From positions 15,934,001 to 15,998,000 of the forward strand of contig JBHGNT010000015.1 of NCBI GenBank assembly GCA_043228905.1: a stretch of DNA of 64,000 bases. Reading direction: 5' to 3'. This stretch comes from Azolla caroliniana. Its lineage: Eukaryota; Plantae; Polypodiophyta. Shown here piece by piece: positions 15,524-50,300 of this stretch (position 1 is the stretch's first letter; each line of letters opens with the position of its first letter). A program made the translations under genes and the position numbers. The notes beneath the pieces were generated by a model. It was not told where the DNA came from. It saw nothing but the letters and a program-made list of their open reading frames with translations, and ran no database searches.

Positions 15524-15589
15524 GGATTTTTAGAGGGGACTATCAAGGCGTGGGGTTGTGATAGTCTGGACAACCGGAAGAATCCCCAC
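15524..15589 (+). promoter_or_regulatory. Candidate -1 ribosomal frameshift signal (G GAT TTT + H-type pseudoknot) in G1
   Basis: Heptamer 15524-15530, in frame and followed by TAG. Stem1 GACTATCA 15538-15545 / TGATAGTC 15559-15566; stem2 GTGGGG 15550-15555 / CCCCAC 15584-15589. Confidence 0.6.
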
Positions 15590-16056
15590 ACCTGGAAATT
15601 TTGCCCCTTTGATTATGGAGATTGTATCATAACCTGCATTGGTGGCTGGGAGAAGCGAAAGAAGTTTGAAAGCCTATGGCGCCTTGGACTCCGATGACGA
15701 GGTCAGCAACGCTGTGGAGGTGGTATCATTCAACGACACTCTTTGGGAGATTGAAAGGATGGCCGAAGAGGACCTACGCAAAGACCAGATTATTCTGGTC
15801 GATTCGGTCAAAATGTATGAAGTCATCGCGGACCGGATTATTCCGGATGGTCAGGTCAGATCGAATGACCCTAGTGAGCACAAAATACAAGACTGTAGAC
15901 CGGAAGGTGAGGCCAGTCACGACTCCCTTGCTGGAGGATAGCTAGGAGCGGATGAAAGGGGTCACGACTAACCCAAGTTTACGAAATACGGCCGGCATAG
16001 GACACCGATTCACCAACGAGATGCTACGGGAGCTCAATATCGGTGGGGGTGGTTTC

Positions 16057-16797
16057 TGTTGGGAACTCGACGTTCCTTATGTCCGACGCTCGGCCACAAC
16101 CGAGATTCTTTTCATACACAGAAAACAGGTAATGAAACGCGACACAAAAGAAAAGGAAGAGGAGAAATGGTACACAGGAGGTATACGTGGAAAACCCCAA
16201 AATAGGGGAAAAACCACGGCAGCCCACGAGCTGCAAACTGTCACTATGCAGAAATATACAACAGTGAGATCACTGAGGCAACGACCTCGTGTTCTCAGAT
16301 CTTCGCCACAGGCGGCAGTTACGACAGAGGCAACGACCTCGTCTCTCTCTCTCTTTCTCTCTCACTCTCTCTGTACAGTTACCCGCTCTAATTTCTACTT
16401 ACACCAACAGGAAAGAATAACAACGAGAATAACAACAGTAACTAAAAGTTTGCCCTAAGTCATATTTATACTAATATGACTTTTCGGCTATTTACAAATG
16501 TAGCCTCGATGGGCTCCATCCGGCTCTCCGCAGTCGGGTACTCCTCATCCGGTTCATACCGGGCCTACACCATCCGACTCTCCGCAGTCGGGTACTCCTC
16601 ATCCGGTTCATACCGGGCCTACACCATCCGACTCTCCGAAGTCGGGTACTCCTCATCCGGTTCATACCGGTCCTACACCATCCGACTCTCCGAAGTCGGG
16701 TTCTCCCCATCCGGTTCATACCGTTTCAGCCTCGGCCGAGTTTGTTCGTCGGCACTGTTCTTCTCCCTTGCCATCCGGAGGGACCTGTCTTCCAACA
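16057..16797 (-). mobile_element. Copia solo LTR, TSD GTTTC
   Basis: TGTTGG..CCAACA termini, GTTTC at 16052-16056 and 16798-16802. Similar to C1 LTRs. Host pol frame (GGGGF|LLPAEE) is restored on removal. Confidence 0.93.
16516..16723. repeat. 54-bp tandem repeat (about 3.8 copies) inside the solo LTR
   Basis: Unit CCATCCGACTCTCCGCAGTCGGGTACTCCTCATCCGGTTCATACCGGGCCTACA starting at 16516, 16570, 16624 and 16678. Confidence 0.95.
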
Positions 16798-19700
16798 GTT
16801 TCCTATTGCCTGCGGAGGAAGACCGGTTTCGGAGGATGCTCAGAAGGCACGGGAAAGCCTTCTCACTCTCGCCAAGGGAGATCAGATGTGTCGACCCAAC
16901 GATCGTGGAGCCAATGGTGATCTTCACAGTACCACACGTACCGTGGAGTCTCAAGCCGGTTCCGGTACAGAGAGCTCACATATCGAAGTTGACAGAGCTA
17001 CTCAAACAGAAGATCGAGATGGGGATCCTCGAGCCGTCGAGACCCCCATACTCGAATCAATGGTTTACGGTGCCGAAGAAGAACGGCACGTTGCGTTTCA
17101 TTCAAGACCTGCAGTCGGTCAACAAGGTGACCATTCGAAACGCAGCGAATGGGCCAACTATTGACGACTTTGCGGAGGCCTTCACGGGAAGGTCGATCTA
17201 CTCAGTCAATGACTTGTACTCCAGATATGACCAGTTCTAGCTAGCCATGGATATCACGACCATGTGAACCCCTCTCGGTCTAGTTCGGATGTGTACCCTA
17301 CTGTAAGGAGGGACTACCCCAGTGACATACATGGTGAATGCAATGAACAAGGTTTTGAGGGACTGCATCCCAGACATCACCATGCCTTTCTTGGACGACA
17401 TACCGATCAAGGGATGTCCAGAGGAAGCAAAGGATGAATTGATTGGGTCGGACGAATGCGGGAGGTTTGTTGTGGACCACATCGGCTGAGGCTTTGTCCT
17501 AGGTTATCCACAAGTATATATATAACGATTTGCGTGCATCCGTGCACGTGGTAGTTCACATGCCTTTGGTCTCCGTTTCTTCTTGTAGCCGGTTTTCCTC
17601 ACGACATCCACCCTCACCAAACCGCACGTCCAACGGTACGTGGCGAGAGAGAGGGAGAGATATGGGGGAGAACCGGCCATTCGTCACTCGTCGTCCTCTG
17701 ATCCGGTGACCTCCCCATCTTCGTCTGCTCTTTCTGGCCCATCATTCTCGTCCTCGCTACCCGGGTCTGGCTCGTCCTCGTACCGTTTCTTGAATGCCTT
17801 TATCCACTTTTCCGCAACCGGTACCGCCATCCATGTTCCGTCGAGCTCCGCGAGATGGTACATGGTGTTGTCGTTTGCTCTTGTCACCACGTAGGGCCCG
17901 AACCATCTCCTTGCAAATTTGCGCGTTGCCTTATGCTAGTTGTCGAGGCTGTTGTTGTAAACCAACACCCAGTCGCCTTCCTCAATCTTCTTCGGTCTCA
18001 GCCGGTGTGTCTGGTCAAACCGGTCCTTGTTCTTCTTCCACACCACTTACAATTTCACCTTTGCCCGTTCCACATCCTCCTACCTCCACTCCAACTAGCA
18101 AATCCGCACCGCCAATAGCTCCTCCCGGCTCATTTCGTCCGTCTAGTCGATTGCCACCCACGAAGAGATCGTCTACTCCATTGGCATGATTGGCTTCTGC
18201 CCGTACATAAGCTCTGTTGGCATAAACCCGGTCACCGAATTGTGCGTGGTTTGGTCCACCCACAGTGCATAAGGTAGGAGCCATGGCCCATTCCTGATGC
18301 TCCTCTCGCACGCCCATACTAACGCCTTCACGATCGACTCGTGTCCACATTCCACCTTTCCGTTTGCCTCCGGATTGTATGCCGTCGTGAGAGAGAGTTT
18401 TACCCCCAAACAGGCAAACAACTCTTCGGCTTCTTGCGCATCCAATTCTCCCTGGTCGGCCATGTTCTTCCCCACGCATCTGTATCGGCAAACCACCTCT
18501 TTAATTAGGAACCGGCATATGGTCGCGGTCGTTTTGTTCTGTAGTGCACGAAACTCCACCTGGTTCATCAGGTCCTCTTGCGCAAGTACCAGATACCGCA
18601 TTTGCCCCACTCCCATCGGCATCGTCACTAAGTCCACCATCCATTTCGGCGGGTAGGTTGGGTGTAGGTCGTCTTTGTGTCGGATCGCGCAATGCATCTA
18701 GGACCTTTCGCAGGTCGTCACGAATTGATGCAGCTCCTAGTACATTCCTGGCCACCAGTATTTTTCCTTCACCTTCTCGAACGTGGCCCACGTTTCGCGG
18801 TGGCCGGCCCAAGGGCTCTCATGGTACATTGACAAGAGCACCTTCTGCTCTTCGCTTCTTATCACTACGCGGAGCGGAATGCCGTTACGCTTTTTCAGAT
18901 GCCTCCATATACTCTCATTCCGCAGGAAGAACCAATACACCTTCTTCCTGATCCTATTCGCCTCATCCCTTGTCCATGCCGCGTACAACGCCAATGTCCT
19001 CAAGAATCAGCTTACTGGAGCCACTCCCCATTGTACTCATTTTCGTTAAACTCATTTAGTCCCGGACTGCTCCCCTCCCGTGCTGCTACGCAAGCCGACT
19101 CGAATAAATCCACGCCAACTTCTTCATCCTCCAATACCATGCCGTCCTCATTGTCAAACCGCGCTCTTGAAAGAATATTGGGAATCAACCTATCCGGAGC
19201 CACTGCACATTGTACTCTTTTTCGTTAAACTCATTTAGTGCCGTAATGCTCCCCTCCCCTGTTGCTACACGAGCCAACACGAAGAAGTCCACGCCGACTT
19301 CTTCGTCCTCCGATACTATGTCATCCTCATTGTCAAACCGCGTTCTTGAAAGCATATCGGCCATGGCGTTGTCTTTACCGAAGATGTGTTGGATCTCCGG
19401 GTTTAGGGACTTAATGTACGCGATCCACCTGAGCATAGTCAGGTCCGAAGTCGCACATCCGGAAACCATACATAAGATAGGTAGATAGTCTGTCTCGATT
19501 ACTACCTCTGTCCTGATCAAATAATCTTTGTCGGTCTTGACTACCGAAACGATATCCCAAAGTTCGCGTTTAACATGGGTGTATCTGTTGGGGACAAGGC
19601 TGTCAATGCGGAAATGCAAGCAACATTCGTGATGAAGAAGAACCTGTGTATGCATGAGCAAGGTAGACACAAAGGAAGAGAGAGAGAGAGAGGCACAAAG

Positions 19701-22700
19701 GAAATGTTATATTCCAATAGCAACAGTTACAAAAGACAACCAACCTTCACTAAAGGTTACAAAGTCACTTTATATAGTGACTATCCTAGGGCACCTGCCC
19801 TTTATGCTATTTACAGAAATAGCCCGAACTTGGGCTGTCCAAAGGGATAGTGTGAATACGGCCATTATACACTCGTATTCGACACTCCCCCATAATGGGT
19901 GTATACATGGGTTATCTAAAAGAATTACAGGTATATAATGATTGAATTGGTCGGGTCGGAAGAGCTAAAGCCGATCCTCAGAGAACCGATGTCGGTGGTC
20001 TGAAACCATCCCGTGTTGTGTGTCCGACTTTAACAGAACCGATTTTTCGTTACGCCCATCTGGTGCCGAAGGGACCGGAAACGATCCGCCGAAAGACACT
20101 TGGTCATTCCATCTGCGACATTATCAGTTGTGGATATCTTCTCGATACCGATTTTCCCTGAAATGATGCAATCCCGAATGAAGTGATATCGAACGTCGAT
20201 ATGCTTAGAGGCATTGTGGTGAACCGAATTTTTGACAAAGCAACAACACCTTGATTGTCGTTGTAGACAACTGGAGCCGAGTTGGAGTCGACCTGTCGAA
20301 ACGTATGCGCCAGCCGACCGAGCCATAAAGCTTCTTTTGCCGCGTCGGACGTAGCTACATATTCCGCTTCGGTCATTTAGGTGGTCGTGCACTCCTGAAG
20401 TTTTGACTTCCACAAGATTGCTCCATTGCCGAATTTGAAACAATATCTGGTTGTTGATTTTCGACTATCCACACAGCCGGCGAAGTCCGAGTCGGTGTAA
20501 CCGACTACGCTTGAGGTTGAGTTCAGGCCGAAAAGAATGCCGTGGTCTTTTGTGCCAGCTAGATATCTGAACACATGCTTGACTGTGTTCCAGTGCGATC
20601 GGCCGAGGTTGTGCATGAATCTGCTGACTACTCCTACGGCGTGAGAAATATCAGGTCGTGTCGTGACCATCGACGACTATCGGTGCATACGGTACCGACT
20701 TCATATCTTCCCCCTCCGGACCGGATGTCGGACAGTCTCGCTGAGACAGCTAAAGGTTAATGGGGAGCGGGGTCGAAGCAGACTTCGCTGATTGCATGTT
20801 GAAGCATTCTAAGACACATCCAATGTAGTCGGTTTGAGACAAGAAAAGTTGTCGTGTATCGTGATACCGACTAATCTTCATACGAAGTATGTGTCTTGCC
20901 GGACCAAGGTCCTTCATGGCAAACTTCGACCGCAGTTGCCGAACGAGTTTGGTGAGCTCTCCGGCATGCCGACCGGAGAGTAGCATGTCCTCCATGTAGA
21001 TGATGAGGAAGACGGGAGACCCATCTTGAGTTGTTTTGGTGAAGAGACAGTGATCCTCATCGCTCTTTGAGAAGCTGACCGATTGGATGAAGTCGTCGAA
21101 CTTCTTGTACCACTGTCTGGGTGCCTGTTTCAGGTCGTAGAGACTCTTCTTGAGTCGGTAGACTAGATGTTCCTGGTCGAATGCCACAAAGCCTTTCGGC
21201 TGCTCCATATAGATTTCCTCCTGTAGATCACCGTGGAGGAATGTTGTTTTTACATCTAGCTTAATCAGCTCCAAGTTGTCGGCGGCCATGACGCCGAGCA
21301 TGAAACAAAGGGTCGTCATTTTCACCATTGGTGAAAAGATTTCGTCGAAGTCGACGCCATATTCTTGTCGAAATCCCTTAGCAACTAATCTGGCCTTGTA
21401 CTTTGGGGTGGTCGAGTCAGATGTCTCTTTTAGTTGATAAACCCACTTACACGGAAGAGCACGTCGATTATTCGGTAATTCGACCAAGTCCCAAGTCTTG
21501 TTTGCCCGAATGGGGTGCATTTCCGACTCCATTGCCAAATGCCATGTGGCTGAATCGACAAATGATGATGCTTCTTCATAAGACGTAGGTTCGCTGACGT
21601 CGGTAAAGAAAATTCCGGGAGAGTACCTCTCCAGAGGTTGCGACAGTCTCTCGGATCTGCAAGGTATGACAGGACTAGTCGCACCGGGTGTCCATGTCGG
21701 ATGGTCAGGAGCCGAGCCATTCGGCTGTGCCAAATCGGTGGATTCAGTGCGAGAGTTGTCGGTTACCCGTGAAACCGATCTTGTGTTGTGGGTTGGGCCG
21801 TCATGAAGGGTTGGCACTTCGGAAAATATTACCCTTCGGACTTCAATAGGCCTTTCGGTCGTTTTATGCATAGCCGACTCATTGAACACGACGTTCAAAC
21901 TTCGGACGATTTGTCTATGCTCAGGGTCCCAGAGTCGGTATTCGATCTCGCCATCGTGTCCATATCCAAGAAAAACACATTTCCTTGACCTTGGTTCGAG
22001 TTTCCGGCGGTCGTCTTTCGGTATGAGAGCATACGCCTCGCAACCGAAGATCCTCAGTTTGTCATAATTCGGCTTACTGTCGGTCCATATTTCTTGAGGT
22101 ATTTGAAGTCCTAGAGGTCTACTTGGCGACATATTTATTATGTGTACTGTTGTAAGTAGAGCCTCTGCCTAGAAGCCATCCGATAGTTCGGAGTTTTGGA
22201 GCATGGATACTACGCGTTCTTGAATCGTCCGATTCATGCGTTCAACAATTCCGTTCTGCTCCGGACTATAGGGTGTCATATATTCATGTCGAATGCCGCG
22301 TTCCCGACATAATTTGACGAATTCTTCAGACTTGAATTCTCCTCCATTGTCGGTTCGGAGACATTTTAGTTTCAGACCGGTCTGATTTTCGACCATTGCA
22401 AGCCATTCAAAGAAGATCGAGAACACCCGATCTTTGGTTCTGATGGGGTAAGCCCACACCGTCCAAGTCGAGTCATCAATGAAATTAACAAAGTACGAAG
22501 CACCGCCGAGAGACTGATATGGCATCGGGCCATAGACGTCCGAGTGGACCAAATCGAGGGGACTCGATTCTCTTGGTGCTGATGTCGGGTGTGATGTGGC
22601 TACCTATTTGCCGTACTGGCAATGCTCGCAGAATTGGTGATCCGAGAAGGAGAGTTGGGGATGTAACCAGCTCTGGATAGGTGCATTATGCCGGCCTTGC

Positions 22701-24998: not shown

Positions 24999-25038
<40 letters not shown>

Positions 25039-25796
25039 AACGACCTACAAACTGTCATACGCAGGTATTCAACAGCAATCGAATGCTTCTTGATCTTCCG
25101 CACAGACGACTTTGTCTCCAACATCTAGTATCAGAGCCTGCACAGTAGTCGGTCCTTCAATCTGCTGTCGGCCGTCGTCTCAGCATTCGGTTTCCTGCGT
25201 CATTCGAAAAAGAGAGAAGAAGAAGAAAAACGAGGCCTGCATCTCATCGCGTTAGATCATCTTTGCTTGGAGTAAGCCAGCAGGTTGTACTCCGTTCCTT
25301 GTGATCGTAACCGCTCGAGGTGAAATCCCCTTGTGCAACTTTGACAGGATCGTGCTCCATTCGGTTAAACGGCATCCGAAGAGGTCATCAAACGCTGCTC
25401 GCCGCTCGTTGTAACCACTCGGTGCAGATCGGTCTCAAGACAACAACCCCAAATTCGTGCTTCATCTGGCTGATCGACATTCGGGAGGATCAGTCGGATC
25501 CGTCTCTCTCGTTGCTGCAGTCAACCGAAGCAGAATCGGTCCAGATAATCGGTTTCAATAATCGGTATTCGGCATATATATCCGAAGCGAACCGGGCTCA
25601 CTCCGACTCGGCAACATTCGGGAAGACCAGTCAGTTCTGTCCCTCAAGCTACCGGAGTCAATTCGAGCAAGTTCCGAAGCCGAACCGACTCGGGTTCAAA
25701 TCCGACTAGAGCGATATCGGGTGAGCCAACCGGCTGCACTCCAACAAGGCTCGTAGTCAACTCCGAACCGAGCTTCGTCAACCGAAACCAAATTTG

Positions 25797-28169: not shown

Positions 28170-28282
28170 TCCGAGAGACTGTCGCAACCTCCGGAGAGGT
28201 ATTCTCCTGGAATTTTCTTCACCGACGCCGGCGAACCGACGTCTTACGAAGAAGCATCGACTTCGACGAGATTTTTTCACCA

Positions 28283-30083: not shown

Positions 30084-30121
<38 letters not shown>

Positions 30122-32663: not shown

Positions 32664-35600
32664 ACGTTCACCATATGCGCCACCGAGTTGGTCCCTCCTT
32701 GCGGCAGGGTACACATCCACACTAGGCCGAGAGGGGTCTGCATCATCGTGATATCCCTACTCTCTACGCCTAGTTGGAATTGATCATATCCTGAGTACAG
32801 ATTGCCAACTGAGTAGATCAACCTTCTAGCGAAGACCTCCACGAACTCATCGATGGTTGGCCTGATCCTTGCATTACGAATGGTCACTTTATTAACAGCT
32901 GCAGGTTCTGAATGAAGCATTGATCTCTTCTTCGGAGCTAAGGGCACTGCACACCCTTAAACACTCTTCGACCCACTTATTTTCCCGTCCTCTCACACCG
33001 GTTATAGTACAACCTCAAGTATCGGGGAACTAAAATTTCTTATCTATGGTACACGTATGCGGTTTCTTCGGGGTGTCCAGACTATCGCGGCCCCACGCCC
33101 TAATAGCCCTCTCTAAAAATACTATCGGCCATCACTGCCGAGAGATTCGCAGTTACGCTCATGGTTCGGTTGCATAGTCAAAAATTCGACAGAGTGACGT
33201 CTGTCTTGGTTTTTCACCCATTGTCCAACACTTTGGTCTCCATACGAGCTGTCGTAATGTATGGTGCGAGGAAGTCCCCTGCACGAAAAAGTGTTGATCG
33301 ATCTCGACATCACCAATCGTCACACGTACATTCGGGCACGCCGCGTATAGCTCCTCCGTAGCACACGTAGCCACGCATATTTTCCACCCATGCTTGGCGT
33401 TGATTGGCCGCTTCCCCTTTTCGTAGAAATCCATGGACATCAGGTTGATTTCGGATCCATGGTCTATCTGGGCCACCGCCGGCTCTTGAACGTTCCCAAT
33501 CTGGACGGGTGTTTCCGTAGTTGCTCTCGCCCAATGTAGGTTCGAGTAGTGGCTATACGCCAATTCATCTTCGACGGTCGTGTCATCTAAGTACGCCGTT
33601 CGCACTTCCACGGGCTTTTGCGGTTCCGTCTCCGTCGCGAGCCTTTTACGCCTCCCTAGGTCTACGATGGAGTCATGGAACTCCTTGGTAATTCCCAACA
33701 CTTCCCTCAAAGACAACTCCACTCTTTTGTCGAGGATTCATTCTTCAAGGACTTTCCGTATGTCTATAGCCTTCTCTATTTCTGAGCCTTGCTGGTAGCC
33801 CGCCAGTTTCAGTCTTTCTTGTGAGCCGGGACAACCAGCAACATTTCTCTTCGGCACACTCCACGTCTCGTACTTGCTTATCTTCCACTAGAACCTCGTA
33901 CTTCTGGTAGGCCACTTCCACAAAACCGGTCTTCTCCTCGACCGGATCGTTCCACCCCGTAACCTCCCGGACCCACTTCTCCGCGCGGTCCGCTTCTTCC
34001 TTCCTCAACCGTCCTCCAAAAAATCCTTCCAAAACTAGTGGCCAAAACCTAGAGACTTTTGAATTCGGGTCGTTGTCGCCTCCGACCCGGATATTGGCTG
34101 ATGTCAAATAATGGATGGCCTCAGCGTGTTGCGTCGTGGCTTCTTCCATTAATCGTTTCATTCCGCCCCGACCGGTATTCCATCCCAAGGCTTCTCGAGT
34201 CTCACTCGCGTGCACCTACCCATTGCGTAAGTACACCACGTTGCTTCTGAGTGCCTCGCTAAAATCCGCGCAATCTCTTAGGGTGTGGCCAACCGCATCG
34301 CACCACATACATCATTGGTTGACCGGATGCCTTCGGTCACACGACTATTCCCCACTGTCTCTCCGAGCCTGCGTGATCTAGAGGTTCCATACCATCTTAG
34401 TGAGCTCTTCTAGGTTCGTGCCTCTGAACGGGCCCTTCACCACATCAGTTGAGACCGTACCGAACTCAATCCACCTTCACATCTCTTCTGTTCGAACCCG
34501 AATCGGTTCTTCAAGTTGTCTTCCCACTGTCGGTCTTGCTACCAATGGGCCCTCTTCTCTCCACTCACACCGTAAGTCGAAACGGCTGCAGACCCTTTTT
34601 ACCATGGCCTAGTTGGCCGTGAGCCCATCGTCCATCTCCAATAGGGGATCCAACTTCTCCCAATCCTATGTGTCCACGGTGTTGTGAAGATTTTCGCCAA
34701 TGGTGTGAAAATTGCGAGGAATGTCCAAAATCGAGTGTGGTTCTTTATACAAGACATAAAACAATGATAGTGAATATACTATTTTCGATTAGCTTAATAT
34801 CTTGGTACGGGAAGATGGAGGTCTTCAAGAGATTCCGAATGTACTTTACTACATTTGAAACGAACAAATAAATGTCAAGTTATGCGAATGTGAAGTTTGA
34901 GAAGAAGAAGAGAAAAACAAAAAACTATGAGATATCCCACATAGAAAGGACAAATCAGGATCCCACAGTATATAAGTAAAGCCAAAACTTATCACTTTTT
35001 GTTATGAGTGGAGCACAGAATGTTCTTGGGCTAAACTATGGCTTAACTACTCGTAATGGTTTTGGCGGAGCCGGAACCCAAACCGGCACCGGACAATGAT
35101 GGAACCGGAATCGGAACAGACGGATGGCGACGGAACCAAAACCGACATCGAAACCGGAACCGGAACGGATAAACCGGATCACCGGGTCGGAAGCAGACCG
35201 GATAGACGGATCGATCAGAGAGGTTGATCGCGACGATTTCGGTGTGAAACAAACAAAATCATCTAAACTGAAAAACCTATTAGAAATTTGTAATCAAAGG
35301 GATGCAAGCAAGGCTTGAACCTTGCACCTCCAAGGTTGGAGGCCATATACTTACCACTAGACTTAGTCATTTCCTTAAAAATGTTTTTTCTATCGTTATA
35401 ATTTTATATGTAAATTCTCATATTAGAGCTTGATTGAGTGACATGGTTATCATGCATCACATGTAATGCATGAGCGCCAAATGGCAAACATTCATCACAT
35501 GCATTGTATGCAGGTCTTGTACCATCACATGCATCATATGCATGGGGCCGTTTATAAAAGAGTGGATGAAGAAGAAAAAATGGAGCGATGTATTAATCAA

Positions 35601-38600
35601 GAAAATTAAAAGTAAGAAATTTGTTATCCAATTGATGTATCAATCTTGTTCTTCAAATCTAAAGTCAAGAGTTCAATCTTAATCTCTCTCAATCTAAAGT
35701 CAAGCGTTCTATCTTATCTCAATCTCTCTCTCTTTTTCAATCTATCTTAATTCCTTTCTTGCTAAAGCTAGTGCAAACTTCGAGTCCTTCCAGTCCAGAA
35801 CCCCGGCGGTTCCGCCTCACGATCCGCACGTAGTGACGGATCTTCACGACATAATTAAGTGGTGAACCCAACGTGAAAGAGGCGGTAGGAAGGATCAAGT
35901 CGAGGATCAACTGATACTTGGAGATGGCATCCTCAAGCAATCAAGCGGGAGAGTTCAAAAGGTTGATGTTGATCGTCGAACAAATGATGAGATCTCGGGA
36001 CAACGATGCGAGCGTGAAGAAGGCCATCGACCGTGTCGTTGAGCTCGAGGGTCAATTTGATGGAAGGAACATTACAAAGTTCCTTGATGCATACAAAAGG
36101 GAGATGAATCAGAGGTCAAATCACAAGTTTCAAGAGTGGTCGCCAACAACACCCAAAAGCGCGTCATCGAAGAAAGGAAGACAACATGGTCGGAGTTCAA
36201 GAAAGCAATATTAGCGGAGTTCGCGATAAAAGATTTGTCGAGGATGACTCGACATACCTTGATAAAGTGGATAGAAAAGAAGAATAAGAGGATGAGCACT
36301 TCAAGGGTGTATGACGAGTTCGACCAAATGTTTCGTCGTCCCCCCGCCACAGACCAAGTGCTACTTGAGGAGGGCAAAACTTTGTACTTCCTAAAAGTTG
36401 TGGATATGAAGGATAGACTAGAACTGGGTACTCTCCTTGAAGATGATACCCAAGCGAACGAGCTTGTGGCAGACTGGGTTGCGGTGAAGCGGGCATGCAA
36501 TAGGCTCAACAAGCGTCGTTAGTGGGTTGATGACACCAACTTGGCAGGATCGACTGTCGTGGAGAAAACAAGACAACTGAAAGTAGCTGAGCTGCCCAAA
36601 CAAAGCAGCCCAGAAGAAAAGAAGATTGATGATGACATCATCGAAGAACTAGCGAAGAAGTTCAAGATGGTTACGCTATCCAACATGAATCGTCGGGGCC
36701 CCAAAGGAAAAGAACCGTTTAGATGCATGTGGTGTGATAGCATGAACCACATGAGAAGGGATTGCGTGAGCCTTTGAGATGCCATTCGACAAAATATCGT
36801 ATACATGGATGGCAACATGATCTGCACGAGTGAGACTAGAAGACCCCTGCGGGTGAATTTCGGAAGAGGGGGAATGAAGAAATCTATGGAAGATGTTGAG
36901 GCAACTCATGTGGATGCGATGCACTATGCTACATCGGCTGGAATTAGAGTTGGAAAAGATAAAAATGAAGTTGCTAGAACGGGAACAAAGTTTTGTTCTA
37001 CCGTTGTCAAGTATGAGAAGAAAGGAAAAGTCACTTCGAATGAGGTAGAGCTTGCGGATCAAAGTGTACAAAGTATAACCGGATGTTCGGATCCTGTGGA
37101 TGACAACACCATACTCACTGAAATGACGTACGACAACCATGAGGTGTTCGTTGAAGAAAAGAGAAAAAGAATAGAAGAGCAAGGCCCATCAAAAAGACAT
37201 GAAACAAGGAACGCGAAAAAGAAGGAAGATGCGGAAACGAGTCGAGCTTTACAAACGGAGGAACGAGAATCAAGCTGAGAAGGGGAGTCAAGCAAACGAG
37301 TCAAAGAAATGGTGCAGCCCGTGAAGGTTGGTGTCTATGACCCCGCTCGGAAGACAAGAACTATGCCTACCTATAAACTAAAGTCGGACATAGAACAAAT
37401 GACAGACTTGAAGAAGATTCTCGAGGAACGTGTTCTTGATAGCCACGTGACCTTGTCCTTGAGGAAATTTCTTGGCATTACGGAGTTCCATGATATGATT
37501 TTAGATCTCATAAAGAGAAAGAGGCAACAGTAGGACGAAGAAGAAGAGAAGCTACTAAAAGCAAAAGTGAATGCCATAACGATGGCAAGAGACGAAATCG
37601 AGGAAGATATGGTGGACAGACACTATACTCAGCTTCATTGGGCTCGAGCAACGACGGAGACGGAAGTCAAGTTGGGGGAAAGAAAAGAGACAGTCGTAGC
37701 GTTAATAGACTATGGGTCCGAAATCAACCTTATGTCAACTTAGGTCTACAGGAAGGGAAGATGGCCCATAAATACAAATCATGGGTGGAAGATCTGTGCT
37801 GCTACGAAAGCTACCGAAGACTTGTATGGGGCATGTCCTAACATCCGCATCACAATTGGCGATGTCGAGATAAATCAACATTTTTTTGTTCAAGACTCGG
37901 CGTCCCATCCCATCATTCATGGGCAACCATACATAACATCATCACGGATGGAAACCAAAGTGTTCGACAATGGTTCGGCATTCTCTCGAGTTAGGAGTCT
38001 TGATGGGAAGAAGGTCGTACAATTCTTGAGTGTACGTGCCAACCATGAAAGGAATCAGGATCATCTCAGAGGAGATGCTTCGGATTTTCAGAGCGGACTA
38101 TTGAAGCATGGGGCACAAATAGTCCGAGCAATCACAAGTCCCCACAAGAAAATAGAGCACGTGGATTGCAAGGAGAAGCAACATGTGTCACACCTAGTGG
38201 CGCATGTAAACTAGTACTACCCAACAAAAAGGACAAGCGTCGGATACAAGACTTCCAGAAGATGCTGAAAGAAGAAAACATAATAGAAGAAGAAGAATTC
38301 GTGACTCATATTATGGAAGAAGATGGAAACCAAAGTGTTCGACAATGGTTCCGCATTCGCTCGAGTTAGGAGTCTTGATGGGAAGAAAGTCGTACAATTC
38401 TTGAGTGTACGTGCCAACCATGAAAGGAATCAGGATCATCTTAGAGAAGATGCTTCGGATTTTCAGAGCGGACTATTGAAACATGGGGCACAAATAGTTC
38501 GAGCAATCACAAATCCCCACAAGAAAATAGAGCATGTGGATTGCAAGGAGAAGCAACATGTGTCACACCTAGTGACACATGTAAACTAGTACTACCCAAC

Positions 38601-39290
38601 AAAAAGGACAAGCGTCGGATACAAGACTTCCAGAAGATGCTGAAAGAAGAAAACATAATAGAAGAAGAAGAATTCGTGACTCATATTATGGAAGAAGATG
38701 GAAACCAAAGTGTTCGACAATGGTTCCGCATTCGCTCGAGTTAGGAGTCTTGATGGGAAGAAAGTCGTACAATTCTTGAGTGTACGTGCCAACCATGAAA
38801 GGAATCAGGATCATCTTAGAGAAGATGCTTCGGATTTTCAGAGCGGGCTTATTATAGATCTTGGTACTAACGTAAGCTTAAGATCAGGATAATGAAAAGA
38901 TAGATAGAAAGGAGAAAGAGAAAGAAGGGTGCCGATCCACCCGACCACCCCCGAGCGAAGGGATCGAGACGGACTCGAGCCTCGATCGGCGTCCCATACC
39001 ACCGCCGTGGCGTCGAGTCGTACCTGGTGCTGGCGCGCTCGCTACAAGAGTTGACCCACCACACGAGCAGAGTCTCGATGTAGTCAAAAGATGATCAAAT
39101 GAGGGTAGCTAGTCCTCTTATTTATAGCGAAACCCAAGGCCCCCAGGCAAGTTCACACTTGACCTAATGGGTTGTCTCAATCCCGAGGATTAAAAGTAAT
39201 CCTCCCCTTCTTTACACTCTCATTTAACCCTCACACTTATCCACGTGTATAGAATACTACGGTAAATTCTTACCACGGGATATTATATGG

Positions 39291-42200: not shown

Positions 42201-42464
42201 TAATTGAATCGGGACATTATCGATATTGTAAACGTGAATGTCCGGATCAAGTACACAATAAAATAACGTAGAACAAAACAACTCGGATATTGATGGACAC
42301 GAGGAAACAATCGAGAGGGATTGTTTTTTTACACATTGAATAAAATGCGTACAATCGTTCAGTACAAAAGAAATGGAATGACGAACCCAATCAATAAATA
42401 AAGAAGAGTTTTTATTATAAAACCAGGGATAACCTAGTATTACATCGGTGGTACAAAGATTCAT
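39291..42464 (-). CDS. Chromovirus pol: RT, RNase H, integrase, chromodomain
   Basis: 1057-aa open frame: [80 protein letters not shown]. Runs 14 nt into the 3' LTR. Confidence 0.93.
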
Positions 42465-42469
42465 TACAT

Positions 42470-43724
42470 GGAAGTCTACTTCCTCTATATAAGTATCAAT
42501 AGAAATTCCTAATGAATGAATCGCCCCGTTGATGTATTGTACTCTTCAATCAGCCAAGTGCACCGTGTAGGTGTGATCACTTACGGTGGGTTGGATTCCC
42601 TATATCTGAACCAAACGATCATTCACAAAATTGTGTGAGCTTCCCGAATCAAATAAAAACTGTACGGGAGATCCATTGATATACCCGTTTGCACGTAGTA
42701 AATCATTGGGACCCAATACATAGTGAGGGAAAGAACATTGACAATTACTTAAATGATGTGTATAGACCTGAAGGACATTAGGAATCTGACCTTTATGGTC
42801 TGCAGCTTTAGCTTTGTTGTCGTGCTCTTTCCGTTGGAGCTTTCGACATTGATCTTTTGTATGACCCTTCTTTTTGCAGAATACACAAAAAGGATGTTGT
42901 CGCTTACAATCGCGATCCAGGAATTCGTTGGGTGTCTTGCGTTTCCCAACAAATTGCGACTGCTTAGTCCCGGGCGCTTCGTTGGGTTTGTTATGGTCCT
43001 TCTTCGAACTGCGTTGATAGTGAAGAACTATTTCAACGGCCTCTTCGAAGGATTTTGGATCCTTATCGTGCACTATCCAGTGATAGTCCGAATTGGGGAT
43101 GCCATTGACAAAACAAGCTATCAACCAATTGTCCCCTTCTAGACCCGATTTTTGGATTTGGGTTCTAGCATGGTGAACATAGTCTTCTAGCGAGGAAAAT
43201 TTCCTGCTAGAGAGGTTCATTAAAGCTTGTGCTGCCTCGGTTCGAGAGGGAGGTTGCAGAAATTGGCCCTTAAAAACCGTGACAAAATCTGTCCAGGTAT
43301 CAGGCAATTTCCCCATAGTACGGAGGCCACGCCATCAGGCGGCGGCCTTACCCCCGAGTTCTCGGCCGACATATGCAATCTTCGTACTATCTGGCGTGGG
43401 ATAGAGCTCAAAATGAGACTCCCATCGTCCCAGCCATGTGCATATTGCTTCTTCGGTTCTTTCCTTTTTGTCTCCCGTAAATGGCTTAACGACAAATGAT
43501 GGTTCACCTTGTCGCTCATCAGGTCTATTAGTCTCACGTTGTAGACTAATGACACGTGCCTCAAGAGCACTCTGAGATTGCCGAAGTTCGGTCATCTGTT
43601 GAGCGGTGAAACTAAGGTATTGGGTTATTTGTGCCAAATACATCTCAGTGGACATTTGTCCAGGAGGATTCCCTTGAGTTCCTTCCGCTTGAGCGGATGA
43701 CATCGGGTCGTTAATTTGAGCCAT
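42470..43724 (-). pseudogene. Chromovirus gag-protease with nonsense stops
   Basis: Capsid-like region, CVFCKKKGHTKDQC zinc knuckle, LFDSGSSHNF protease; in-frame stops at 43335, 42600 and ~42547. Confidence 0.85.
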
Positions 43725-44902
43725 TAAAGATTATTTCTGGAAAAGAAATAGGATAAGGTCAGAGATATAGTCATAACATCATGTCGTGATGTAAACATAT
43801 CATGGGCGAGCATCAATCGATATCATTATCTCACGTCAATACCCCTCTAGACGTATGAGATGAGGTTCAAGATCAGGTTACTATGGTAACACAAAGGTGT
43901 TTTAAAAACCATGGGGGTGACAAATAAATGTCTTTCCCTGATCTCTATATCAATTTTTTCATGGTGGCTCCCCGAGGCTCAACCATGTATGTTCGCGTCA
44001 TGAATAGTTTATACACGAAAAAAAATGTTAACAATAAACTATGTTTCGGTGCCCACATAAGTGGTTTCGGCTCTTTAAGTCCTATTACGAGGACCCCGAG
44101 GTGCACTTAGACCTTAAGTCTAAACATGTGTTATAGTCATATGTATCAAGGATGTTGTATGGTCTTGGTCATATTTGAACTCGAGACCTCGAGAACAAAT
44201 ACATTAAACACTTGAGCCAACCAAGTAAGTTGCTCTTCTCGAATGCTTAATGTTTGATGCGTATAAGAGATTTGCGAGGCAATTGATCATATATGTTTTT
44301 TTAAAAGAACATATATGTCAAGGTCCTTATTTCGCCCTCATTTACCAAAACTATGTTGATACGTTACCTAACCTCAAGTCTCGTAATTACGATGGCATAT
44401 GCCAAAGGGCAACCTAATGGTCAAGCCAAATGAGCCCTCGTTTCGTAGTAGGCTCACATGGGCCATCACATGGTCACGTCATTACGAATGCCTCTCGTAA
44501 GAACGAGCTCATGGTGGCATCGTATCCATGTAACGAGGGAGGGATGTTGGATACGTGCGTCATTGGAGCGACCTCACTTGAAGTGGGTCAAGCCCTACGT
44601 ACTCAACATCATTTTGGCTATTCACGTTTCTTTACGTAACGAAATCGAGGTCGTCAACGGGGTTATCAACAATAAAAAAATGTTGAAAAAGGGATGGTGA
44701 CAACGCCATTCTCACAAAAATGTGAGGACGGCCACCAACATCCTTTTCCCGACAAGGACAACTTTCGATATAATCACGTAATAACGAATATACACATATG
44801 TTTACTTATCACATATATACGATCAAATACGTATATATGTGACCACATATGCCTATATTAAACATATCGTTATATTAAATAGCCACAAATGATGTGATCG
44901 AG

Positions 44903-45166
44903 ATACGTAATCGAGGTATATACCTCTACGCACACGAAACATCCACAAATAAGAGATCATCGTAATACGCAATGGAGGTATTGACCTCTTACGCATACGA
45001 GACCAAACGCATATCGTTTACAACAAATCAAGGTATTAAACTCATACGCAAACGTAACATATGTTCGTGAACGTAATACGTAATTGAGGTATTAACCTCG
45101 TACGCATACGACACTCATCACATATTATCAATATGTCAAACGAGGTATTGACCTCGTGCACATATG
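44903..45166. repeat. Array of five spaced GAGGT-N4-ACCTC hairpin motifs in the chromovirus 5' leader
   Basis: Cores at 44913, 44975, 45030 (degenerate), 45086 and 45142; periods 62, 55, 56, 56 bp with dissimilar spacers. Confidence 0.8.
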
Positions 45167-46165
45167 TAAACGTTTTAGATAATCAATTAAAGACCACTAC
45201 AACATCATTGACTTAATGAAAAAAATTACATATAAACTAAACACATGATTAGATGGGAGAAGAGAGAATAGAAAGAAAAATTATGGAAAGAGTTACCGAA
45301 GTTCTTTGTTGATCGTTGTCTGGATCAAGGCCAACCGCACAACGATCAATCAGCATCAATCAAAAGACAAATGAAAAACAAACAAACATTAGTACAAAAA
45401 TCTGATACCAAATATTATAGATCTTGGTACTAACGTAAGCTTAAGATAAGGATAATGAAAAGATAGATAGAAAGGAGAAAGAGAAAGAAGGGTGCCGATC
45501 CACCCGACCACCCCCGAGCGAAGGGATCGAGACGGACTCGAGCCTCGATCGGCGTCCCATACCACCGCCGTGGCGTCGAGTCGTACCTGGTGCTGGCGCG
45601 CTCGCTACAAGAGTTGACCCACCACACGAGCAGAGTCTCGATGTAGTCAAAAGATGATCAAATGAGGGTAGCTAGTCCTCTTATTTATAGCGAAACCCAA
45701 GGCCCCCAGGCAAGTTCACACTTGACCTAATGGGTTGTCTCAATCCCGAGGATTAAAAGTAATCCTCCCCTTCTTTACACTCTCATTTAACCCTCACACT
45801 TATCCACGTGTATAGAATACTACGGTAAATTCTTACCACGGGATATTATATGGTCATGCCCGTAACAGGACTATTGAAGCATGGGGCACAAATAGTTCGA
45901 GCAATCACAAGTCCCCACAAGAAAATAGAGCATGTGGATTGCAAGGAGAAGCAACATGTGTCACACCTAGTGACACATGTAAACTAGTACTACCCAACAA
46001 AAAGGACAAGCGTCGGATACAAGACTTCCAGAAGATGCTGAAAGAAGAAAACATAATAGAAGAAGAAGAATTCGTGACTCATATTATGGAAGAAGCCTCA
46101 TTTAACGACACCATCGGGAAAATCGAGGAAGTAGTGGACTTGAGCTATCTTCACGATCGACACGT

Positions 46166-47232
46166 TGTCATGGAGAAAACCGTCCCTAGGAGGAATTAGT
46201 GGGTAGTGTGCGTGAACCGGCCCTTACACACGAGCACATGTTTTGATGTATTTACATAGTTAAGTAAAGGTCGGCGATGTAATTATCCTAGGTAGCACGA
46301 ATTCATTAAGTAGGGGATCGAAGAGGATCTTTGTCCGGAAGGACAGAGAATAAAAGTGATGTAACAGTCTGTAACAGCTCTCTCTCCTTGTGCTATAATA
46401 GGAGAGGAAAAGGGGGAGAGTGGATGTCGCGGATTTTTGAGGACGAAGTGTTGTCGGACTGGGAACTGAGCTCTCTCCTCCACTATCGTTGTTGCTTCTG
46501 TAGGGATTCAAGTTAGGTTGGTTGCCTCTGCTGCGTGAAAACCCGTGTGCTTCTGGTAGAGGCTCCACTGCATATTTCAGCGCGTGTGTTCGTCTGTGTT
46601 CAGTCTGTCACCGGCTTGCCGGTTGTAACATTGCAAGCTCTGTAATCTATACTGTTATTGGAATTGATTCTTTCGTTTCTGTCTCTCTGTGTTTCTGCAA
46701 ATCTCTCTCCCTCTTCTCTCTCACGCTCCTCAGTTCAGGGCCTCCGCGGTCCCGCCTTATTTCATACGCAAGAGCGTAACAACATGACATAAATTTGGTG
46801 AACCCGACATGAATAAGGCGGCAGAGAAGTCGAAGATGAGGGGATCAGAGCTCGCCAAAGCCATGGCGGCAACAGTCGATTGAATAGTAAGTGCTCGCAA
46901 GGGCACGGGTGCCCTAGACAGGGTTGTTGAAGCGATTGTCGGCACAATAGCCCAGTTCAATGGGAAGGACACCACGAGTTATTTGGTGGCCTACCGAGCT
47001 GAAATGGTGATGAGGGACATCCTGGAGGAAGGGCGTCTGGTTGGGTTCCCTCGGGTGGCGAGACCGGGCATCCACGCAGAGGTGCCCGAGGTGGAGGCTG
47101 GATGCCGAACCTAGGAGAATCTGAAGCACGGCTCCTCGAAAGGTATGGGCTTGATGACGCGCTTCGGTTATCGAAGCGGGAGTTCACGGAGTGGGTGGAG
47201 ACTCCCGGAAAGGGGAGGAACGCATCAGCGCT
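46166..47232 (+). mobile_element. Gypsy LTR (46166-46789) + tRNA-Trp PBS + gag start
   Basis: TGTCATGG..ATGACA termini, PBS 46796-46813, gag FNGKDTTSYLVAYRAEM. Inverted copy at 51030-51855. Confidence 0.85.
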
Positions 47233-47355
47233 CCCGATAAGATAAGAGAGCTAAGAAGGAAAATAAAATAAAATTTGGAGAGAGAATGGAATAATCTGCC
47301 GTTCTCTCTCCAAATTTTATTTTATTTTCCTTCTTAGCTCTCTTATCTTATCGGG
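47233..47355. repeat. 57-bp near-perfect inverted repeat with 9-nt loop
   Basis: 47233-47289 is the reverse complement of 47299-47355, with one T.G wobble. Confidence 0.95.
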
Positions 47356-50300
47356 GCATATCTCTCATAGACCCTAATTTTCCCTATGGAAGCCATATCT
47401 CTCAAAATCTAAAATCTCTTATCAAAGCCAAAAACCCTAAATTTCTATTGAATCCATATTTAGTTTCTTCTAATCTATTATTCCAGTGATCTCCATAAGC
47501 TAAACTTTTGTAATCCCAATCTTGGGATTGATTGTAATCTTTCTTTCTATTTGTTAATGAAATTTGTTAATCTTTCTTATTTCGGTTAATTCTTAGTACA
47601 TAAACACACAAATTTGATGTTCTCTGGTGGGAGGCCCCAAGGTCCTACCTCAAGTTCACGTATCCTCGTTGTATTTTTGCGACATCTTTGGTGAACCCGA
47701 CGTGAAGCGCGGTGGCAGGAGGATATCTAGTGCGACGATGGCTTCGACAAGTGGAACTCAAGGAGAGGAATTAACGAAAGACATTGTGTCCGTAGTGGAA
47801 TACATGCTGAAGGTGAGAGATCGAGAAGCTTTAATCGACAAAGTTGTTGATCGTACGGTTGAGATAGCTAGACGATTTGGTGGTAAGAACATCACGGATT
47901 TTCTTGCTACCTATCAGAACGAGATGGAAATAAGGGATGTCAATGATCTCAAACAAATTTCTAGCTTCAAACATGTGGATGAACCAGGGATCCGCGAGCG
48001 CGTCATGGAGATCCAAAACGAGCATGCAACTTGGGCGGAGTTCGAAAAGGCGATTCTCGCTGAATACATGCTTGAAGACGCATCATGGATGACTCGACAT
48101 ACACTAATGATTTGGATCGAGAAGAAAGGAAAGAATCTGTGTGCATCGGGAGTGTATGCGGAATTCGACCAGAAGTACAACCGACTTCCAAGTGTTGATC
48201 AACGAGTTCTCAATGGAGATAAAGTCTTGCTATTCCTAAAGGTGGTGGATACAAAAGACCGGCGAGAATTGGGCGGTTTTTTGGAGGACGAAATGCAACC
48301 AAATGGCTTGGTAGCGGACTGGACGGCGGTGAAGAAGGCTTGTAGCCATCTTGATAAGCGTCGATAATGGCAAGAGGAAACTGATATGGAGAATCTACAA
48401 ACATGGAGGAGGAAAGCACCTGCGATGGTCGAGCCTAACAAGCCGATCAACAATTTCGACAAGCGATGGAGAACTCTATAATCGAAGAGCTCTCCAAGAA
48501 GTTTGAAGCAGTATCACTAGCCAACTTAGGTCGGCATGGGCCGAAGGGAAAAGAAGCGTATAGATGTGTGTGGTGTGACAGCTTCGAGCAGTCACGAAGG
48601 GAATGCGCTGACTTGCAAGATGCGATCTGCAAGAATGTCGTCTATTTGGACAGCAACATGATTCACTCGAGCGAGACCCGGAAGCCACTATGAGTGAACT
48701 TTGGAAGAGGTGGGCTGAAAAAGATTGTAGAAGAGGAAGATGCAAGGTATGTGGAAGCTATGCACTATGCCGCTTCAGTCGGGATATGAGTTGGAAAGGA
48801 GAATCTTAAAATGATCAAGCCAGGAGCTGGGTTTTCGACGACGGTCTTCGAGTGCGAAGAAAAAGGCAAAATCAACTCGGAGGATCTAAAACTTGCTGAC
48901 CGGAACGTGCGACGAGTTATTGGATGGTCAGATCCAGTCGACGAAAAAACAAGCTTTGCGGAGGTAGTGTGCGACAACTATGAAGCTCTAGTCGAAGAAA
49001 AAAGGAAAAGAACCTGTGAAGAAGGTGGCACATCAAAGCGTCCCAACTCAAGGAACAAAGAGAAAGAAGGGCAAGTCCCACCTATGCCACGAAGAGAGGT
49101 TGGAGAAACAAGCATGAAGCCCGGTGGACCGAGCCAACCTACTCGGATTGAAGTCGAAGAATCAACGAAGAAAGGAAAAGAACGAGCGGCACGGACTTAC
49201 AAGCTAAAGTCGGACATAGAACAAACAACTGACTTCCGGAAGGTCCTTGAGGAGAAGGTTTTAGACAGTCATGTCGACCTTACTTTGAGAGAACTACTTG
49301 GGATCGCAAAGAAGGAGTTCCATGATACTATCGTGGACCTTATAGCCATTACTCTCGACCTCATTGGGCAAGAGCGACAACGGAGACGCTGGTGAAGATC
49401 GGGGAGAAGAAAGAGACCGTGGTAGCCTTGATTGACCATGGCTCGGAGATCAACCTCATGTCGACCAAGTTCTACAAGAAAGGAAGATGGTCGATTAATA
49501 CAAACCAAGGATGGAAGATTCGAGCGGCGACAAAGGCCACGGAGGACTTGTATGGAGCTTGCCCCAATGTTAAAGTCATGATTGGGGATGTTGAGATTGA
49601 TCAACACTTCTTCGTGCAAGACTCGACTTCGCATCCTGTCATCCTAGGACAACCGTATATAACATCGTCCTGGATGGAGACTAAGGTGTTCGATAACGGA
49701 GAAGCCTTCGCGCGCATCAAGAGTCTTGATAGTAAAAGATCTGTTCAATTCCTAATGGTGCGAGCTAATCACGAAAGGAATCGAGATAGCCTTGGAGGCG
49801 AATCCTCGTATTTTTAAAGCGGACTATTGAAGCATGGGGCACAAATAGTCTGAGCAATCATAAGTCCCCACAAGGAAGCAAAGTGTGTGTATTGCAAGGA
49901 GAAGCAACATCCGTCACACCTAGCGGTGCATGCAAACTAAGACTACTCAACAAGAAGGAAAAGTGTCAGATACAAGACTTCGAGGAGGTGCTGAAAGAAG
50001 AAAGCATAATCGAAGAAGAAGAATTCGTGTCTCATATTTTGGAGGAAGCCTCATTTAACAACACCATCGGCGAAATCGAGGAAGTCATGGACTTGAACTC
50101 TGTCAACATGTACGCTATCATCAATGAATATCATCGAGGCATCTTGATGGAGGAAGTTGAAGTCAACACAAAATATAAAACCGTGGATAGGAAAATCAAG
50201 CCAGTTGTAGTTCCGCTACCGGAAGATAGCTGGCAAAAGATGAAGGAAGTTGCAAAAGATCCAAGCTTAAGGAATCCAAATACAATTGGTCATGTCTTCA

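Follow-up and report, generated by a model that had tools for sequence, protein, structure and literature searches.

Plant LTR retrotransposons have been described as encoding their proteins in a single open reading frame, or in frames that are spliced, stop-interrupted or, in a 2003 survey relayed in PMC5009743, overlapped in +1. Among the plant non-chromovirus gypsy elements, Ogre and Retand resemble the elements described here in having a break that separates GAG-PROT from RT-RH-INT (REXdb Additional file 5); the break is a spliced spacer in Ogre and a single in-frame stop in Retand, whereas in our elements the two frames overlap in -1 with a heptamer and a predicted pseudoknot, and both Ogre and Retand have an extra archaeal-type RNase H, whereas Pfam shows one RNase H here. 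Tcn1 and Selgy are likewise non-seed-plant gypsy elements whose two frames overlap, GAG:o:PROT-RT-RH-INT (REXdb Additional file 5), but their overlap precedes the protease and their primers are self-priming and tRNA-Ala.

Comparable arrangements are found in viruses. According to PMC12789967 the RSV/ASLV protease is part of Gag, and PMC5009743 reports a -1 shift by about 5% of ribosomes close to where gag ends, a pseudoknot being present. As proposed for our elements, Gag and protease occupy one ORF with a -1 shift to Pol at its end; the differences are that RSV/ASLV is an animal retrovirus with another heptamer and a more complex pseudoknot, whereas ours are plant Ty3/gypsy elements. The RSV heptamer is A_AAU_UUA. 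We regard the likeness as most likely convergent. MMTV, HTLV, SRV-1 and MPMV also shift by -1 between protease and RT, at pro-pol (as described in PMC12789967), but need an additional first gag-pro shift, whereas here Gag and protease form one ORF. Umbraviruses and dianthoviruses have the identical heptamer, G_GAU_UUU, with a stop close behind; in the account of PMC5009743 G_GA is accepted as XXX in these viruses, G_GA and G_GU are both tolerated, and the closeness of the stop is important for the -1 site of pea enation mosaic virus. Their structure is a bulged stem-loop that forms a kissing pair over a long range, whereas a compact local H-type pseudoknot is predicted here. Our literature searches returned no report of post-protease frameshifting of this kind for plant retrotransposons.

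The window, a stretch of 64,000 nucleotides of an Azolla caroliniana contig, contains four decayed gypsy elements (G1 to G4) that carry the heptamer and predicted pseudoknot (Table 1). G3 sits inside the gag of G2, and a nested chromovirus at about 38850-45867 splits the third G3 cassette, with G3 resuming at 45868. Judged on sequence, it is very probable that Gag and protease are encoded in one frame to G_GAU_UUU and that RT-RH-IN is reached by a -1 slip of a minority of ribosomes at the predicted pseudoknot. Ribosomes would pause at this H-type structure, 5-6 bases downstream, and a minority would slip back one base at the heptamer, with tRNA-Asp and tRNA-Phe moving in tandem from GAU UUU to GGA UUU. 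Most would terminate at the stop immediately behind the heptamer (in one group, at a stop five codons further on), and this termination may itself help the shift; each Gag would come with one protease, while Pol would amount to between a few and tens of percent.

Table 1. Features of the four elements, in window positions (S1 and S2, predicted stems 1 and 2).
Feature	Positions	Strand	Remarks
G1 protease region of Gag-PR frame	14919..15533	+	ends ..G-D-F-stop; decayed, internal stops
G1 heptamer G_GAT_TTT then TAG	15524..15533	+	
G1 predicted H-type pseudoknot	15537..15589	+	S1 15537-15545/15559-15567, S2 15550-15555/15584-15589
G2 heptamer, decayed form G_TAT_TTT then TAG	33113..33122	-	
G2 predicted pseudoknot	33057..33109	-	S1 33109-33102/33086-33079 intact; S2 3' strand damaged
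G3 5' LTR (TG..CA)	34680..35851	+	target site ACGG just before, 34676-34679
G3 primer-binding site, probably tRNA-Trp type	35860..35876	+	1 mismatch vs family motif
G3 Gag-PR frame, decayed, to first heptamer	36121..38088	+	
G3a cassette: G_GAT_TTT, stop lost (CAG in its place)	38082..38144	+	S1 38094-38102/38118-38126, S2 38109-38113/38140-38144
G3b, tandem duplicate of cassette	38457..38519	+	heptamer at 38457
G3c, third duplicate	38832..38849	+	interrupted in stem 1 by nested chromovirus
Remainder of G3c pseudoknot and -1-frame linker	45868..46146	+	past chromovirus
G3 RT-RNase H-integrase remainder	51856..54732	+	
G3 3' LTR	54853..56061	+	then target site ACAG, 56062-56065; NCGN with one mismatch
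G4 primer-binding site, probably tRNA-Trp type	47689..47705	+	
G4 Gag, with DUF4100 and a CCHC-like motif, plus protease region	47684..49817	+	indel-broken; ends TAA 49815-49817
G4 cassette: decayed heptamer G_TAT_TTT, TAA	49808..49870	+	S1 49820-49828/49844-49852, S2 49835-49839/49866-49870
G4 -1-frame ORF: linker and RT N-terminus	49790..50698	+	open across heptamer; truncated

A first-pass annotation of this DNA had placed heptamers in G1, G2, G3 (three sites) and G4, followed by two stems, and all of these are found where and as it described them. Its count of four elements with the signal also stands, but the three G3 sites (38082, 38457 and 38832) are a 375-bp tandem triplication, 97% identical, within one element and are counted once rather than as independent instances. 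Likewise G_TAT_TTT is indeed present in G4 and G2, but it is rejected as a second, working slippery type; these are decayed copies of a family that reads G_GAU_UUU, and position 49809 is G in the relatives at a contig depth of 38284.8 of 38387.9 (X1), 13212.8 of 13212.8 (X20) and 3.2 of 3.2 (X21), where X20 is probably DNA and the label of RNA is a guess for X21 (4 records) and X22 (0 records), so that these depths carry no information about splicing or expression. The RT frame of G4 had been read as -1, and tblastn with intact relatives extends this to all four elements, each of which has stops or indels elsewhere. A degenerate pattern gave five matches at 3 mismatches against none in 100 shuffles, which, since it was derived from the copies themselves, shows only the absence of a further hidden copy. 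In a constrained H-type search G1, G3a and G4 outscore 30 of 30 dinucleotide shuffles, and the score of G2 is matched by 2 of 30 because the 3' strand of its stem 2 is damaged. Nested folding is not exceptional for every copy (z of -0.81 for G1, -2.87 for G3a, -1.17 for G4 and +0.72 for G2); stem 1 appears in the minimum free energy structure of eight of nine folded sequences, the exception being G4. Rfam returned just three chance matches, at 37900-38400, all under the gathering score.

The intact relatives have a Gag-PR ORF of about 680-830 codons, running from just after the primer-binding site to the heptamer, followed in -1 by an RT-RH-IN ORF of about 1100-1240 codons; this layout supports the earlier proposal that Gag-PR would be made constitutively and RT-RH-IN by a -1 frameshift after the protease. 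Among the best 80 of 194 related loci, most of them from one series of related assemblies, the Gag-protease ORF ends in G_GNU_UUY in 74, a pattern that was set after the data were seen (65 GGATTTT, 4 GGATTTC, 2 GGGTTTT, 2 GGTTTTT and 1 GGTTTTC). RT lies on the same contig as the heptamer in 62 loci, and its frame is open in -1 in 57, open in -2 in two and interrupted in three; protease and RT share one frame in none of the 62, and the one fusion found is a distant, single-member protein, P0195, a 1374-residue in-frame Gag-PR-RT-IN. One locus, L082, stops short of the junction and was left out; another, L081, was fetched after the model was fixed and reads G GAT TTT TGA with RT open in -1. The stop follows the heptamer directly in families ending in DF-stop and comes five codons later in one group. 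A G precedes the D, G or V codon in 74 of the 76 loci with such an end, L015 and L080 having A, while the codon preceding the D, G or V codon specifies 12 different amino acids across 26 representatives, and TAA, TAG and TGA are all used after the heptamer. Because the base is kept despite the varied codon, and because all three stops are used, its conservation points to a constraint on RNA rather than protein.

Three sequence features of classical -1 frameshifting are present: a tolerated heptamer, a predicted structure 5-6 nt downstream, inside the usual 5-9 nt, and a -1 ORF open through the site. In 26 hand-picked representatives the linker of 365-470 nt has no stops in the RT frame, against 3-26 per other frame. 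Ribosomes could instead reinitiate, or initiate internally, past the Gag-PR stop to make Pol, in which case the structure would act in reinitiation, packaging or dimerisation and the heptamer would be incidental; many RT ORFs do have an AUG before the RT core, and RNA structure could serve other roles. We consider this very unlikely: no shared AUG was found in the linkers of the 26 representatives, the first AUG being scattered from codon 1 to 109, while the RT frame stays open upstream across the heptamer, which varies only among slippery forms, and the spacer is fixed to the base except where a one-base change accompanies a change of RT frame.

The first-pass annotation had noted a covarying change in stem 1 between G1 and G3, and in aligned family members predicted stem 1 covaries in a fixed register and predicted stem 2 covaries across families. 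Across 42 rows that align almost without gaps, stem 1 has 86.0% of its cells paired against 79.6% when shuffled (reached by 0 of 500 shuffles), two-sided changes occur in eight of ten pairs (5 of 500 shuffles), and slid-register controls are 22-44% paired; the structure came from these same sequences and the shuffles ignore relatedness. In a family-level test of 16 rows, one per 80%-identity family, stem 1 strands pair with their own partners at 137 of 144 positions (equalled by 0 of 20000 permutations), and stem 2 has an own mean of 15.9 against a cross mean of 12.7 (2 of 20000). Stem 2 is weak in some families, cross-pairs equalling or exceeding the own pair in 11 of 15 comparisons for L076 and 9 of 15 for L046. 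Stem 1 of L081 has a very different sequence in the same register. The constrained search found no pseudoknot in L069, and of 30 shuffles 2 equalled the score of L041 and 4 that of L046; the scores of L055, L066, L068 and L078 were not used, these loci being re-anchored on the heptamer for later alignments.

The offset could also arise without ribosomal recoding, from transcriptional slippage on the U run, which is 4-6 long, or from a shared ancient inactivating indel, as every window copy is decayed. Such origins are hardly credible, since families that share less than 80% protease identity, and whose ORFs of more than 1100 codons are intact, preserve the offset, variant listings contain no indel variants at the junction, and neither process needs a covarying RNA structure at ribosome-entry distance.

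Ogre splices at this same PR/RT position (according to PMC6317226), and an Ogre-like intron might remove the stop and join protease to RT in some transcripts, the structure regulating splicing or serving otherwise. Gene models of Physcomitrium, Adiantum and Riccia do fuse protease to downstream sequence; in the group ending ..VPL-stop a GT is possible between heptamer and stop (L068 and L078), and the Physcomitrium-type models P0159 and P0190 use almost that join. Against this, the DNA loci have no conserved donor upstream of the stop: no GT there is common to at least 8 of 26 families, the two common ones (+19 and +33) lie 3' of the stop, and in DF-stop families the stop is directly behind the heptamer. 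Nor would an intron require the absence of RT-frame stops that the linker shows from the heptamer onward, and an Ogre-type non-coding spacer was not seen in the 26 representatives, whose frames overlap. Models of one Physcomitrium family exit at the same point to many acceptors, some missing RT, like gene-finder guesses. We regard splicing as very unlikely, and frameshifting as the preferred reading. In one DNA contig (depth 8.6) that skips 49616-50450 the ends of the gap are not those of a splice, and it was discounted as a deletion.

The domain upstream of the junction has a retropepsin fold, its best fold matches being the Ddi1 RVP (E 9e-6) and EIAV protease; a sequence search of solved structures with the protease profile gave no matches, and no relatives of protease or RT were found in IMG/VR. 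Among 108 informative homologues, 81 end at xDF/xNF or about five residues past DF/GF, as do 39 of 78 when homologues are grouped at 50% identity, where 23 of the 78 distant proteins extend more than 35 residues beyond the protease, the four named among these being eukaryotic gene models.

One primer-binding site, which we take to be of tRNA-Trp type, is conserved across the window and the related loci; a tRNA gene with that 3' end was seen neither among 120 matching stretches nor in the window. The G3 flanks, ACGG and ACAG, form a 4-bp target-site duplication that fits NCGN, the preference of Phygy, in one element and with one mismatch. Physcomitrium patens proteins are among the close protease matches. 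The primer-binding site, the target site and the relatives in Physcomitrium together suggest the non-chromovirus Phygy lineage of REXdb, to which the elements likely belong and whose ORF layout is entered as not determined in that listing. The hosts of the lineage are mosses, liverworts and ferns. Pfam shows no Chromo domain and one RNase H, after RT, in six ORF2 and four ORF1 translations from six loci, and the ORFs fill the internal region from the primer-binding site towards the 3' LTR. Membership of TatI, which like Phygy has a tRNA-Trp primer and a 4-bp duplication, was rejected for want of an archaeal-type RNase H between PROT and RT; the linker of 120-155 residues gave no Pfam match at E 0.05. 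The lineage, the RSV/ASLV precedent and the -2 sub-family described below are additions to the first-pass annotation.

The signal would explain the gap in the Phygy layout listing. Phygy copies look broken because of a conserved 'frameshift', which is likely programmed, and intact elements and gene models in moss, liverwort and fern genomes are therefore probably mis-annotated. If true, it would be a third separate means by which non-chromovirus gypsy elements throttle Pol downstream of the protease, beside the Ogre intron and the Retand stop, and the layout would match the alpharetrovirus arrangement.

Two loci, L057 and L058, have the site AG_GUU_UUU and a spacer shorter by one base; the -1 frame is closed and RT lies in -2, in ORFs of 1181 and 1106 codons respectively. 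Their predicted pseudoknot, 5 nt from the site, outscores 30 of 30 shuffles in both. Since only the -2 frame leads to RT, a -2 slip at AG_GUU_UUU would be used, and we put forward a pseudoknot-driven -2 shift as a candidate. The two are sisters (SH-aLRT 100) nested among -1 families in a quick, midpoint-rooted IQ-TREE of 34 rows, used for the sister relation and nesting only and not for the order of events. The one-base spacer change coincides with the change of RT frame, and on balance we favor a non-seed-plant gypsy lineage with pseudoknot-driven Pol frameshifting in which one clade dropped a spacer base, gained AG_GUU_UUU and went from -1 to -2. The -2/-1 site of arterivirus nsp2TF is the identical AG_GUU_UUU, and the -1 frame of L057 meets an immediate stop as in PRRSV (as described in PMC6675879 and PMC7618472). 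By the same accounts the PRRSV site has no RNA structure and depends on a C-rich motif at a distance of 10 nt, with nsp1beta and PCBP acting there (PMC6675879, PMC7618472), whereas L057 and L058 have a predicted pseudoknot instead of a protein-stimulated C-rich motif. A structure close to the site is also a property of the engineered short-spacer -2 constructs reported in PMC3458567. If true, retrotransposition would here depend on a -2 shift that occurs naturally and is driven by RNA structure, and the -1 and -2 sister families would form a natural matched pair for the mRNA-tension model, so far shown on engineered spacers. The -2 shift is possibly shared with a liverwort element ending K-V-F-Y-stop.

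A protease (PR) profile search of metagenome contigs recovered 194 relatives of the gypsy elements G1 to G4, and the figures that follow concern the best 80 of these, the majority of which trace to a single series of related assemblies, so that hosts are not independent. The junction is present in 79, and these form 46 clusters at 95% PR identity, 33 at 90% and 16 at 80%. A heptamer lies in frame at the PR end in 71 of the 80 and in a locally broken frame in three more; it is absent from five, and one locus ends early. Its variation is confined to slippery forms (GGATTTT 65, GGATTTC 4, GGGTTTT 2, GGTTTTT 2, GGTTTTC 1). Of the 76 loci ending in this way, 74 retain the first G, even though the codon holding it encodes 12 different amino acids across 26 representatives. 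All three stop codons occur after the heptamer; in L055, L066, L068 and L078 the stop lies five codons further on, within stem 1, a late-stop type matched by Physcomitrium proteins ending DFGEVPL. Among the 62 loci with both heptamer and RT, the RT frame is open in -1 in 57, open in -2 in two and interrupted in three, in keeping with the proposed separation of PR and RT frames. The recoding signal is judged real and deeply conserved, and programmed -1 frameshifting after protease very probable.

The first-pass annotation had claimed stem covariation from the window copies of the pseudoknot predicted 3' of the heptamer, and this was borne out by 38 loci drawn from the 80 (roughly one for each 95% cluster whose junction could be read) and aligned practically without gaps to the four window copies, and across the 80% families. 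Paired cells in stem 1 amount to 86.0% versus 79.6% in shuffles (reached in 0 of 500) and two-sided changes occur at 8 of 10 pairs (5 of 500 shuffles), both with a structure derived from the same, related sequences; slid registers pair at 22-44%. As relatedness is disregarded by the shuffles and the tested sequences had themselves supplied the structure, the test was redone with one row per 80% family, giving own pairing of 137/144 for stem 1 (0 of 20,000 permutations) and a mean of 15.9 own versus 12.7 cross for stem 2 (2 of 20,000). Taken family by family, stem 2 is weak, since the families have G and C runs in common. A locus retrieved after the others, L081, has the heptamer, RT open in -1, and a stem 1 that differs greatly in sequence with its register unchanged. 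The plant-type gypsy sequences L081 and L082, which lie in a cyanobacterial MAG and a Streptomyces assembly, are probably contaminants, L081 probably of plant origin.

Pfam, which is weak on this domain, matches gag-asp_proteas in 24 of 40 aligned members at E ≤0.1. An AlphaFold2 model of the domain before the junction (mean pLDDT 70.7) resembles retropepsins (Ddi1 RVP, E 9e-6; EIAV and HIV-1 protease lower in the list), which places the junction 3' of protease, as first proposed. Intact relatives run from the PBS through Gag (DUF4100) to PR in an ORF1 of ~680-830 codons and encode RT, RNase H and integrase in an ORF2 of ~1100-1240 codons. The PR active-site motif is D-H-G rather than D-T/S-G in most members of the family protein alignment, and DSG or DTG in several distant relatives; one could speculate that D-H-G marks a weaker protease fit for production one-to-one with Gag.

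The linker between heptamer and RT core (365-470 nt in 26 hand-picked representatives) is free of stops when read in the RT frame, against 3-26 stops in either of the others; in the same representatives no GT upstream of the stop is common to eight or more, and the first AUG ranges from codon 1 to 109. Together these results argue both against removal of the junction by an Ogre-type intron and against production of Pol by reinitiation. Counting against frameshifting, 23 of 78 distant proteins continue past the junction; the four named ones are gene models (Physcomitrium, Adiantum, Riccia), and the run-on models of a single family use many different join points. P0195, a single-member protein on an 8.8-kb contig, carries Gag-PR-RT-RH-IN as one 1374-residue frame, so the shift is missing somewhere among the distant relatives, in either a shift-free lineage or a mutated copy.

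The two -2 loci, L057 and L058, are sisters (SH-aLRT 100 in a quick tree; ORF2 identity ~81%) sharing the site CAG GUU UUU, and in both the distance from heptamer to stem 1 is one base below that of other families. Their -1 frame is closed by 10-11 linker stops, with UGA immediately in L057, and the RT ORF in the -2/+1 frame spans 1181 codons in L057 and 1106 in L058. The L057 junction is no assembly slip: it is covered in four of four runs with no indel or heptamer variants listed, and spanned by gap-free records at depths of 473-2369, although gaps occur in a few low-depth records. A +1 shift leads to the identical frame and is less favoured, since UUU re-pairs in the A site at both loci. 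The pair shares its site with PRRSV, where, in excerpts of PMC6675879 and PMC7618472, AG_GUU_UUU serves -2/-1 shifting and -1 runs straight into a stop, as in L057; in engineered constructs, an excerpt of PMC3458567 places the -2 optimum at spacers 1-2 nt below that for -1. L076 (G_GUU_UUC, usual spacer) still has RT in -1, and similar ends occur, at the protein level only, in P0134 (..KVFD-stop) and Calypogeia fissa P0249 (..KVFY-stop). A sub-family with candidate pseudoknot-driven -2 frameshifting is a reading we lean towards, and such a natural -1/-2 pair would add to the value of the finding.

Candidate -2 junctions and other features (bare positions are window coordinates)
Feature	Position	Description
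L057 junction	2836-2900	AG_GUU_UUU with a 1-nt shorter spacer; RT frame -2
L058 junction	2498-2562	AG_GUU_UUU with a 1-nt shorter spacer; RT frame -2
G3, LTR to LTR	34680-56061	encloses chromovirus and G4
G4 PR active site	49410-49430	motif position; D-H-G in most of the family
Chromovirus	38850-45867	99.8% LTR identity across 455 bp; pol of 1084 codons, including a chromodomain
LTR+PBS segments	46163-46990, 51031-51858	one family, 95% identical, inverted
Copia elements	19584-24825, 25007-30083	~81% identical, opposite orientation
Long ORF	5539-7419	flavin monooxygenase (FMO-like) domain
Duplicate	59232-62209	1441 bp, 99.7% identical, flanking 100-N gap 60672-60771

The PBS, conserved across window elements and loci, is presumably of tRNA-Trp type; the G3 target site is ACGG/ACAG, Pfam found neither chromodomain nor extra RNase H in six ORF2 and four ORF1 translations from six loci, and named relatives come from Physcomitrium, Adiantum, Riccia and Calypogeia. 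In PBS, target site, domains and hosts the family appears to fit REXdb Phygy, given in an excerpt of PMC6317226 as tRNA-Trp 81%, 4-bp NCGN and organisation 'ND'. Excerpts of PMC12789967 and PMC5009743 describe protease as part of Gag in RSV/ASLV, with a -1 shift into pol, the post-protease arrangement proposed here, and the mechanism is therefore of an already known kind. Among plant gypsy lineages in the PMC6317226 excerpt, Ogre and Retand also break after protease, but by a spliced spacer and a stop respectively, whereas the overlap of Tcn1 and Selgy precedes protease; a 2003 survey, as cited in part of PMC5009743, had plant elements with +1 overlaps only. No published description of this signal was found among titles and abstract openings, with subscription literature thinly covered, and REXdb Additional files 1/3 may record frames.

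The window itself contains nested LTR elements, with G2 (minus strand) split by G3, and G1 to G4 are all decayed copies. The four signals were found at their annotated positions, and the -1 pol frame claimed for G4 extends to all four elements, whose post-heptamer sequence matches intact ORF2 in -1. The three G3 sites exist as annotated, not as separate sites but as one 375-bp tandem triplication, the third broken apart by the chromovirus. G_TAT_TTT did not hold as a family signal, its occurrence in G4 being a private change; relatives carry G at 49809 (>99% of contig depth in collection X1 and the full depth in X20 and in X21, the last of tiny depth).

The chromovirus is young, interrupts the third G3 cassette within its stem 1, beside the triplication, and has a left LTR short by ~11 bases. 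The LTR+PBS segments lie either side of G4, flanked by ACGT/ACGG, from either an odd insertion or a rearrangement. The related copia elements are nested in G2, the FMO-like ORF is apparently a host gene inside the nest, and the duplicate is probably an assembly overlap.
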